Shown here piece by piece: positions 39,430 through 53,092 of a stretch of DNA of 64,000 nt. Source of the stretch: Isurus oxyrinchus (lineage: Eukaryota); the NCBI GenBank assembly GCA_026770705.1, contig JANJGN010000049.1, forward strand, positions 2,418,001-2,482,000, read 5' to 3'. Both the position numbers and the translations under genes were made by a program. Position 1 is the stretch's first letter. The number at the start of each line of letters is the position of its first letter. Under the pieces are notes generated by a model that was not told the DNA's origin, ran no database searches, and saw only the letters and a program-made list of their open reading frames with translations.

Positions 39430-39642
39430 CAGCTGGACCCAGACAGGAAAAGAGAGGAGGAGCCAGGCTGTTAACTGGGGGAGGAGAATGACACCCATTA
39501 TCCAGCTCTGTCTCTCTCTCTCTCTCTTATTTGACTCTAGCCGGTATAAATAGCGAGATGGTTCAGCGCCAGGTTCACAATCCGCAGGTGTCGCTGCGAC
39601 GGACAGTAACGCTCCCAAGTCAGTTATACCCAGAGACTGAGG
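39430..39642 (+). promoter_or_regulatory. VH promoter region: TATA box TATAAATA at 39545-39552, E-boxes CAGCTG (39430) and CAGGTG (39585), no octamer
   Basis: The TATA box lies ~98 bp upstream of the leader ATG. No ATGCAAAT/ATTTGCAT was seen nearby, consistent with shark IgH promoters lacking the mammalian octamer. Confidence 0.6.
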
Positions 39643-39688
39643 ATGGGATTTGCGCTGTGCCTTTGCTTCTTCTTGGCTTACTTCACCT
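39643..39688 (+). CDS. IGHV: Ig heavy-chain leader exon (MGFALCLCFFLAYFT)
   Basis: ATG at 39643, hydrophobic signal peptide, phase-1 donor T|GTGAGT, and a 127-bp intron ending CTAACAG. Confidence 0.9.
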
Positions 39689-39815: not shown

Positions 39816-40117
39816 ATGTCCAATCTGCCATCGTGCTCACCCAGCCGGCTTCAGAGACCGCTAAGCCCAGACAATCTCGCAAACTGTCCTGTTCGGTGAG
39901 CGGGTTCAGTCTGGACAGTTACTATGTGAGCTGGGTTAAACAAGTTCCTGGGAAAGGGCTGGAGTGGCTCCTTGCTTTCTACAAACCCTCGTCAACCACG
40001 TATTACGTGCCTGGGGTCGAAGGTCGAATCATCCCATCAAGAACTTCGTCCACAACTTACACTGAGATCAAAAATCTGAGACCCAAAGACACCACGAGGT
40101 ATTACTGTGCAAGAGAC
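39816..40117 (+). CDS. IGHV: Germline VH exon (IgW-like V): (Y)VQS-AIVLTQPASETAKPRQSRKLSCSVSGFSLDSYYVSWVKQVPGKGLEWLLAFYKPSSTTYYVPGVEGRIIPSRTSSTTYTEIKNLRPKDTTRYYCARD
   Basis: In frame with the leader. Conserved first Cys, WVKQxPGKGLEW and YYCAR. Followed directly by an RSS. Confidence 0.95.
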
Positions 40118-40156
40118 CACAGCGACCTGAACAAGCCCAGAGCTCGTACAGAAACC
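40118..40156 (+). other. VH 3' recombination signal sequence, 23-bp spacer
   Basis: CACAGCG (40118-40124), 23 nt, ACAGAAACC (40148-40156). Confidence 0.92.
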
Positions 40157-40510: not shown

Positions 40511-40590
40511 AGTATCTGTGCTGGTTCCTGTCACTGTGGTACTACAGTGGGTCACAGTGCTGTGTATAGTGAACTCCTCATACAAATAGC
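40511..40590 (+). other. IGHD: DH1 segment GTACTACAGTGGGT (40539-40552) with 12-RSS (5') and 22-RSS (3')
   Basis: AGTATCTGT-12-CACTGTG | D | CACAGTG-22-ACAAATAGC. All three reading frames are open (VLQW, YYSG, TTVG). Confidence 0.92.
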
Positions 40591-40905: not shown

Positions 40906-40972
40906 AGTTTCTGACATGGTGCGTCTCACATTGATACTGGATGGCACAGTCGTTACTGTTAATGCAAAAACC
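40906..40972 (+). other. IGHD: DH2 segment ATACTGGATGG (40934-40944) with 12/12 RSSs; 5' heptamer aberrant
   Basis: AGTTTCTGA-12-CACATTG | D | CACAGTC-12-GCAAAAACC. Confidence 0.88.
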
Positions 40973-41298: not shown

Positions 41299-41337
41299 GG
41301 TCATTGTGTGACCCAGATCAGCGAATGTAACACTGTG
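41299..41337 (+). other. JH 5' RSS, 23-bp spacer
   Basis: GGTCATTGT (41299-41307), 23 nt, CACTGTG (41331-41337). Confidence 0.88.
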
Positions 41338-41385
41338 ACTATATGGAATACTGGGGACAAGGAACCATGGTGACGGTGACTGCAG
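41338..41385 (+). CDS. IGHJ: JH segment (YMEYWGQGTMVTVTA)
   Basis: WGxG motif, preceded by an RSS, phase-1 donor G|GTAAG. Confidence 0.95.
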
Positions 41386-47625: not shown

Positions 47626-47925
47626 ACACACCGTCTCCCTCCACCCTCTACGCTCTGCTCTCCTCCTATGAACAAGCAAACACTGCTGGCTCCGTCACCT
47701 ACGGCTGTTTGGCTGCGGACTACTCCCCCGAAATCACCAGCGTTTCCTGGAAGAAAGATCAAGAGACGATCACAGCTGGATTGAAGACTTACCCATCAGT
47801 GCTGAACAAGAAGGGAACCTACACCCTGAGCAGCCAGTTAACCATCACCGAATCTGAGGTGGGAAGCAGCACAATCTACTGCGAGGTTCGACGGAGTGGA
47901 TCGGTCTGGCTGAAGGAAATGCCAG
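47626..47925 (+). CDS. IGHM: IgM constant exon Cmu1
   Basis: CGCAG acceptor, G|GTTCG donor. (D)[16 protein letters not shown]...[19 protein letters not shown]...[33 protein letters not shown] is a C1-set domain typical of shark mu CH1. Confidence 0.95.
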
Positions 47926-48863: not shown

Positions 48864-49175
48864 ATATTGTGGTGCATCATCCGACTGTTCTCCTCACCGT
48901 GAGCCCCAGTGAAGAAATCACAAGCAGCAGATTTGCAACCATCGTCTGTTCAATCGTTGATTTCCGTCCAAATTCAATCAAGGTGAAATGGCTGAAGAAT
49001 GGACAGGCCATGGCCTCGGGCTTCGTCACCTCTCCCAGCTTTGAAGTGAACGGGAACTTCTCGGCGACCAGTCGCTTGACAGTCCCCGCTGGGGACTGGT
49101 TCAGTCACATGCTCTATACCTGCCTGGTCACTCATAAAGGGGTCACTCAAAGCCGAAACATCACTAAACCTGAGG
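48864..49175 (+). CDS. IGHM: IgM constant exon Cmu2
   Basis: TTGCAG acceptor, G|GTAAG donor. [31 protein letters not shown]...WLKNG...[15 protein letters not shown]...YTCLVTH. Confidence 0.95.
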
Positions 49176-51715: not shown

Positions 51716-52780
51716 TTTGACGTCACGCTGACAAAGCAGGTATTCACGGGCCTTAATAGTTGATGTTGAAGTCGGTGCCTCCCACAATACAATACTCACC
51801 CAGTAATACATTGCTGGTATCAGCTACACTTGTGTTCAAACATCTGGAGTGGGGATTGAACCCATGTTCGTTCTGAATCAGAATCACCCGGTGTCCAGAA
51901 TTCCATCAACTCACAAAACACGGTGACATTTTGTTCAAAGGTTGGACAGTGAGTGATGGTTTTAGTTTTATCCGAAATTGATTGATCATATTATGAGTAG
52001 GATCGGTGTGTGCAGGCCTTTACTGGTAATTGCCCACGACCTCAATCCTGACAAAGATGTGCACATTATTTCTGCTGCTGTTTTCAGATTGAGCAGCGCT
52101 GATTGGAGTTTGCATAATCTCGGCTGCCTCCCTTTGAGTACAAAAGTCTACTGAGTGATCGAATTGCGGTGTTTCGGTTAATTAATAAAACTGGAAGTAG
52201 GGAGAAAATGTTTAGTCCTCCAAATTAGAGATAGGAAAATTCTAAGGAAAGTGATTTTGGCAACATTTGCCTCACACTGTGAAATATTATCACTTTCATT
52301 TTCCCCAAGAATTTCTGAGGCTGCGACTCAATTGATATCTCAAAAAAAGAGATTAACATTTTTTTTTGAAAATGTTATCGCACGTGACAGAACGGGGAGG
52401 ATAAATGGGGTTAAGGCACACATTATTCTTACAGAGAGACATAGAGAACTGAATGGTCTCCTCCTGTGCTGTTAGCATTCTATCATTCTCTGATTCCTTG
52501 ATATCGGGACGAGTGATATTCTGTCTGTAAGACGATTGTACCTGAATTTATTCACATTGTTGGACCGGCATTTGGTTTAGTCATTCCCAGTGGTGCTGGC
52601 TGGAAAAACCCAGGGAATGTTATGGAGTCTCCCGGAATTATTGCAAGTCACTGACCTTCAAATAATGAAGGCGTTAACACGGCAGGGGCAGGTCAAATAA
52701 ATATTCCCTTCGTGAGAATGAAAGCTGTATACCGGGTTTCTGATTCTGAAGATGGTGTTTTGGTTGACATTAATTCACAG

Positions 52781-53092
52781 TTCCCGACTGCAACGACGCC
52801 GTAATTACTCTACAGCCGCCGCCAATAGCACAGGTCTTACTGGAGGCGACAGTGACCTTAACCTGTATCGTGAGTAACGCCCCTTATGGAGTCCTCGTGT
52901 CCTGGACACAAGAACAGAAGCCTTTGAAATCAGAGATTGCTGTCCAGCCGGGAGAGGATCCTAACAGCGTGGTTAGCCACCTGAACATTTCAACACAAGC
53001 CTGGCTGAGTGGGGCTGAGTTCTACTGCGTGGTGAGCCATCAGGATCTGCCGACTCCTTTAAGAAATTCCATCCACAAGGAAGAACGTGATG
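52781..53092 (+). CDS. IGHM: IgM constant exon Cmu3
   Basis: TCACAG acceptor, G|GTGAGA donor (an alternative same-phase GT lies at 53087). (V)[41 protein letters not shown]...[20 protein letters not shown]. Confidence 0.93.

Follow-up and report, generated by a model that had tools for sequence, protein, structure and literature searches.

The closest described counterpart of the locus analyzed here is the nurse shark IgM minilocus, VH-D1-D2-JH-Cμ, in which one V, two D and one J segment lie about 400 bases apart, carry recombination signal sequences (RSSs) in a 23/12-22/12-12/23 arrangement, and are followed by four constant exons, a secretory tail and two transmembrane (TM) exons, the whole belonging to a large, dispersed family (PMC2435157, PMC5192425). 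Some members of that family are dead. Three IgM pseudogenes are counted in the nurse shark (PMC5192425), and the pseudogenes described as G2C and groups 6-8 stand as non-functional genes among functional clusters, keep the germline layout and show no rearrangement on Southern blots (PMC2435157). A second point of reference is the IMGT 'ORF' class of germline gene segments (PMC7555362, PMC13113880). What the locus shares with this class is a coding region that is open although its recombination signal is altered and conserved residues have changed.

We analyzed a stretch of 64,000 nucleotides of Isurus oxyrinchus DNA, referred to below as the window, which contains one heavy-chain minicluster of the cartilaginous-fish type (V-D1-D2-J-CH1-4-TM) with the following features, in window coordinates; RSSs are given as heptamer, spacer length and nonamer.

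39643..39688, plus strand: leader exon, ATG and GT donor intact
39816..40117, plus strand: VH exon, open
40118..40156, plus strand: V 3' RSS, CACAGCG, 23, ACAGAAACC
40511..40538, minus strand: D1 5' RSS, CACAGTG, 12, ACAGATACT
40539..40552, plus strand: D1 segment
40553..40590, plus strand: D1 3' RSS, CACAGTG, 22, ACAAATAGC
40906..40933, minus strand: D2 5' RSS with broken heptamer, CAATGTG, 12, TCAGAAACT; T at 40931, G in paralogs
40934..40944, plus strand: D2 segment, ATACTGGATGG
40945..40972, plus strand: D2 3' RSS, CACAGTC, 12, GCAAAAACC
41299..41337, minus strand: J RSS, CACAGTG, 23, ACAATGACC
41338..41385, plus strand: JH segment, WGQG motif, donor intact
47626..47925, plus strand: CH1 exon, open, private Cys>Tyr at 47668
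48864..49175, plus strand: CH2 exon, open, own-branch T>M and Q>L
52766..53092, plus strand: CH3 acceptor and exon, private 7-base loss in the pyrimidine tract, AG kept
53582..53973, plus strand: CH4 and secretory tail, ending NSCQ-stop, own-branch Y>D and P>Q
59207..59334, plus strand: TM1 exon, open, own-branch T>A
59475..59483, plus strand: TM2 exon, Ile-Lys-stop

Judged by this layout, the cluster is an elasmobranch IgM minicluster: a single V, D1, D2 and J stand in one orientation within about 2 kb, all four segments separate rather than germline-joined, and are followed by four CH exons, a tail with a penultimate cysteine, TM1 and TM2. The IgM label is drawn from the number and layout of the exons, the tail and the match of CH4 to immunoglobulin constant domains, with mu among the best matches; CH1 is of the C1-set. 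The 22-bp spacer of the D1 3' RSS is common to 30 of 30 loci compared. Where the window copy departs from the nurse shark minilocus is in lacking the CAC of the D2 5' heptamer and the CH1 cysteine, and in a shortened CH3 acceptor tract. As a side observation, a nonamer-like GGTTCCTGT directly abuts the D1 5' heptamer (window 40523-40559), so that the D1 3' heptamer read backwards resembles a signal with a 21-base spacer.

The D2 5' RSS consists of the nonamer AGTTTCTGA (40906-40914), a 12-bp spacer (40915-40926) and the heptamer CACATTG (40927-40933), which on the RSS strand reads CAATGTG, with A in place of C at the third base. In a functional IgM cluster all six heptamers would begin CAC; here the other five do (V, CACAGCG; D1 5', D1 3' and J, CACAGTG; D2 3', CACAGTC). 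Both observations had been made in an earlier sequence-only reading of this DNA, and both hold. That reading had also proposed aligning the D2 5' signals of paralogous clusters, and we did so by a genome search with the D region, which returned 101 candidates, of which 40 were scored and 30 loci fetched (29 besides the window copy), supplemented by 18 further stretches. The position corresponding to 40931 is G in 29 of 29 other fetched loci and in 12 of 12 of the further stretches with a separate D2, four of the remainder having a fused D1-D2 and two not reaching into the V-D region, so that CACAGTG is found in all 41 other clusters with a separate D2. The family is larger (101-116 candidates genome-wide), and the paralog counts given here rest on the 30 loci and 18 stretches. 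When the whole genome was scanned with a pattern matching D2 segments of 11 nt, CACAGTG came up 30 times and CACATTG once. By these alignments, the C>A heptamer change (G>T at 40931) is private to the window copy among the clusters examined.

Two other accounts of CACATTG were considered and set aside. As a normal D2 heptamer variant of the species it would have to recur, and it is seen in 0 of 41 paralogs. As a signal pointing rightward it would need a nonamer at 12 or 23 spacing, and the RSS scan finds none. An exact 16-mer containing the mutant heptamer occurs genome-wide in the window and at one further place (on C39), which was rejected as a chance match, since the DNA there is unrelated and does not resemble the window.

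The T itself was seen once, in a single assembly, and an assembly or consensus error would account for it. Under strict matching of four public runs, three contigs starting at 40908 carry one mismatch each, and no contig spanning 40931 matches fully. The same, however, is true of the private bases flanking it (40902 T, 41005 A), which likewise lack a fully matching contig, indicating that the public contigs do not resolve the window copy. None of the public runs shared half of the sought words (best share 0.39), no RNA run was among the 24 listed, and the seven of these that were matched against the copy all gave collapsed contigs without its private bases, which therefore say nothing on 40931 or on expression. 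Within 3 kb the window copy has 16 private substitutions, the T among them, and along its own branch it has changed at a rate of 0.5%. The usual long-read consensus error is far below this figure. Given these two numbers, a real change at 40931 is far likelier than a consensus error, which we regard as extremely improbable, and the lesions in CH1 and CH3 described below would stand even if the T were an error.

We next turn to what a real change would do. Mammalian RAG cleaves hardly at all once any one of the first three bases of the heptamer is altered (PMC2875030), which bears out the statement of the sequence-only reading that these bases are essential, and a high-throughput assay treats CAC as required (PMC9723617); a literature search found no report of shark RAG acting on a CAA heptamer. 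By extension from mammalian RAG, the D2 5' signal would remain uncut. We enumerated the routes allowed by the 12/23 rule, taking the 22-bp spacer as long and limiting standard routes to five steps and those with hybrid joints to three. With the D2 5' signal alive, standard routes lead to six complete V-to-J products; with the signal dead they lead to none, and allowing for inversions or for signal joints being cut again does not change this. The earlier claims that complete assembly is blocked and that inversional routes end in the same block are thus supported. The stronger wording, that the cluster 'cannot complete rearrangement', stands for deletional, inversional and recutting routes, but does not extend to hybrid joints, which had been omitted and which would bypass the dead signal to give three products (VJ, VD1J and V-inverted-D1-J).

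These three routes, which complete V-to-J joining without the dead signal, raise the question of a leaky block, whereby hybrid joints, weak cutting of CAA by shark RAG, or a nearby CACCATG would supply a few mu chains from reading frames that are, after all, open. CACCATG (40915-40921, minus strand) is a CAC heptamer 12 bases upstream of the broken one, and this motif is usable as a heptamer in a cell assay when combined with a good nonamer (PMC9723617). Such a nonamer is what the locus lacks: the interval from D1 to D2 has three CAC sites on the minus strand, each with a nonamer mismatched at 6-8 of 9 positions, and a cryptic replacement RSS in this interval was rejected on that ground. Hybrid joints are rare, making up roughly one join in 850 in pre-B lines from wild-type mice (PMC11290492), and any chain arising from a leaky block would lack the CH1 cysteine. 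Leakage of this kind is, in our estimate, quite unlikely. The reading we prefer is that the private G>T at 40931 would block RAG cutting 5' of D2 and that this IgM minicluster is, with high probability, a young pseudogene whose frames are still open. With the signal uncut, B and T precursors would reach at most the VD1-D2J state, and no mu chain would be made.

Support for the pseudogene reading comes from the rest of the cluster. The sequence-only reading had described the exons as open, which is correct for the reading frames: all exons are open, with no stop codon or frameshift, every AG and all GT donors except that of CH3 are present, and five RSSs are intact, all of which speaks against a pseudogene. 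The sequence-only reading had missed two lesions. Position 47668 in CH1 encodes Tyr, where 29 of 29 paralogs have Cys; the lost residue is presumably the cysteine that bonds the light chain. At the CH3 acceptor most of the pyrimidine tract is gone through a private loss of 7 bases, the tract being kept in 23 of 23 other loci. At the CH3 donor, after 53086, GTGAGT has become GTGATG, a change also present in the sister copy introduced below, with the donor base kept in 22 of 22 non-sister loci and an in-frame GT 6 bases further on. The effects of these CH3 splice changes are predictions from sequence. The VH exon carries five own-branch replacements (G>R at 39869, A>V at 40008, I>T at 40062, E>K at 40085 and A>T at 40094) and one synonymous change, and three of the replaced positions are invariant across the 28 paralogs other than the sister. 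Upstream, a private G>A at 39488 (G in 29 of 29 paralogs) alters a GTGAC motif with a putative promoter role, about 57 bases before a TATA-like box (39545-39551). The CH1 cysteine and the splice signals that a functional IgM cluster would retain are thus changed, and since this further private damage sits in the copy with the broken heptamer, an ordinary pseudogene of recent origin is the most likely reading. A disulphide joining CH1 to the light chain is described in PMC5192425.

Two features seen in other clusters concern CH3. Many paralogs (L076-L096) have CTGAGA at the second GT after CH3, which is no lesion since the true CH3 donor is the upstream GTGAGT; two clusters (L084 and L085) have the CH3 acceptor CAG changed to CAC, together with a stop in CH3.

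The contig has a sister copy 1.92 Mb upstream of the window copy, at 98.1-98.5% identity over 50 kb. The two belong to a colinear block, 190 kb or more in length, and its copies are 1.92-1.95 Mb apart, range from about 98 to 99.9% identity and hold two IgM clusters each (G000 C49 ~516,700-709,000 versus C49 ~2,441,000-2,660,000; L002, L044, L074); the block may be a recent duplication or the other haplotype placed in tandem. In the sister the D2 signal is intact and the CH1 acceptor is AA instead of AG, so that, going by these lesions, both copies look disabled, by different means.

Using the sister for comparison, we assigned exon changes to each branch; one CH4 codon of tied polarity (Phe/Ile, 11 versus 11 among paralogs) was assigned to the sister branch. 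The window copy's own branch carries 12 nonsynonymous and 4 synonymous changes (dN 0.0086, dS 0.0094), and the resulting dN/dS of 0.92, from small counts, is what loss of purifying selection on this branch would give. The non-coding rate on the same branch is 79/15,465 sites, or 0.0051, estimated with one outgroup and uncorrected for transitions or CpG, at which rate 7 replacements would be expected (12 observed); were dN/dS 0.3, 12 replacements would have P ~3e-6. On the sister branch we counted 11 nonsynonymous and 11 synonymous changes (dN/dS 0.31), with an unexplained synonymous excess (dS 0.026 versus 0.004 non-coding), and the difference between the branches is not significant (Fisher P = 0.18). 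Since a sister with a broken CH1 acceptor shows 0.31, dN/dS does not track function cleanly in this IgM family. At the own-branch rate, drift would be expected to change one or more of the 18 CAC bases of the six heptamers in about 9% of copies this diverged, so a hit of this kind should turn up occasionally.

The sequence-only reading had gone further and proposed that the cluster persists for a use: half-rearranged VD1 and D2J-Cμ products, a role as V donor, or Cμ as an acceptor in switch-like events. Its C exons are open, switching of isotype between shark clusters is reported in a review (PMC5192425), and in the nurse shark genes that have rearranged in part undergo transcription and mutation (PMC2435157). 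Against a retained role, the C and TM exons have changed at 6 nonsynonymous to 2 synonymous sites, including the conserved Cys, and V at 5 to 1; the heptamer lesion is found in no paralog; and 97 partial rearrangements stayed within their own cluster, with one possible exception (PMC2435157). The V-donor and acceptor ideas are accordingly not borne out by the neutral exon rate, the further private lesions and the in-cluster course of rearrangement, and a literature search on linkage to the TCR-delta locus, which bore on the V-donor idea, found nothing relevant. Nor do half-rearranged products fare better as a retained role, half-rearranged IgH being in any case a common state in nurse shark thymocytes (PMC2435157). 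Retention of the cluster for any of these uses is very unlikely. Because switching between clusters has been reported (PMC5192425), occasional use of the window copy's Cμ as an acceptor is conceivable and may occur; the 6:2 changes give no sign that it is kept for this, and occasional acceptor use would not require a broken RSS. A regular contribution, either through hybrid joints at the D2 3' RSS that give D2-less VD1J chains without the light-chain cysteine or with Cμ as a regular acceptor for VDJ switched from other clusters, seems improbable to us; if it were true, a recombination-dead cluster would still add to the antibody repertoire.

Together, these data favor a pseudogene by signal loss, corresponding in IMGT terms to an 'ORF', the class whose criterion is RSS and splice defects. 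The sequence-only reading was right as far as the block, and the case is an ordinary one. With some 100 clusters in the genome, losing one would presumably cost little and the copy would be left to drift. The likeness to the 'ORF' class has a limit: an 'ORF' segment in a translocon is simply skipped, whereas a dead D signal in a minicluster disables the entire unit. The window copy also resembles the nurse shark IgM pseudogenes G2C and groups 6-8 (PMC2435157) in being a probably non-functional cluster among functional ones with its germline layout kept; it has itself no stop or frameshift. Loss of an RSS may already be described in the nurse shark, and we make no claim that this type of lesion is unreported: a literature search did not find an RSS-defective shark IgM cluster by title, and the likeliest sources on shark IgM clusters were outside its reach.

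As a pseudogene the window copy matters little in itself, being one dying copy in a birth-and-death family. What it illustrates is the death of a minicluster, in which a single base of a single D signal is enough although the exons all still appear whole. Third-base heptamer loss is found in 3 of 42 clusters in all, the other two being L106 (G000 C49:4289000-4292500), which has an open V and the D1 3' heptamer CAGGGTG, and L113 (G000 C42:2637000-2643000), with an open V and the D2 3' heptamer CATAGCC; V is broken in 9 of 41 paralogs. As many clusters are near-identical duplicates, these counts are not of independent events. Annotation based on exons would class the window copy as functional, along with L106 and L113, and give too high a number of working shark IgM genes. 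The window copy could also serve as a natural control, since its private bases make its junctions traceable: thymocyte DNA could show both the need of shark RAG for CAC and the native frequency of hybrid joints.

The search also brought up clusters in which the D segments are joined in the germline. Four IgM clusters (L115-L118, also L108-L111; G000 C20:76722182, C38:9523817, C38:11193788 and C126:337389) share an identical germline 22-base D1-D2 fusion (V-DD-J) between two intact RSSs with 12-bp spacers. Since the junction is the same at all four places, which lie on three contigs, a single inherited join, later duplicated, is the likely source. In the C38 pair V, CH1 and CH2 are open and the signals intact, and with their fused D these clusters would need two rearrangement steps, as a tetrapod V-D-J does; V is broken in the remaining two. 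A germline D1-D2 fusion is known in nurse shark IgNAR type III (PMC4622739). Elsewhere in the window, positions 1-23000, upstream of the cluster, contain a G-skewed satellite built of subunits of 22-27 bases, with a higher-order period near 4.1 kb, and a tRNA-Ser (TGA) gene lies at 63646-63729 on the minus strand.
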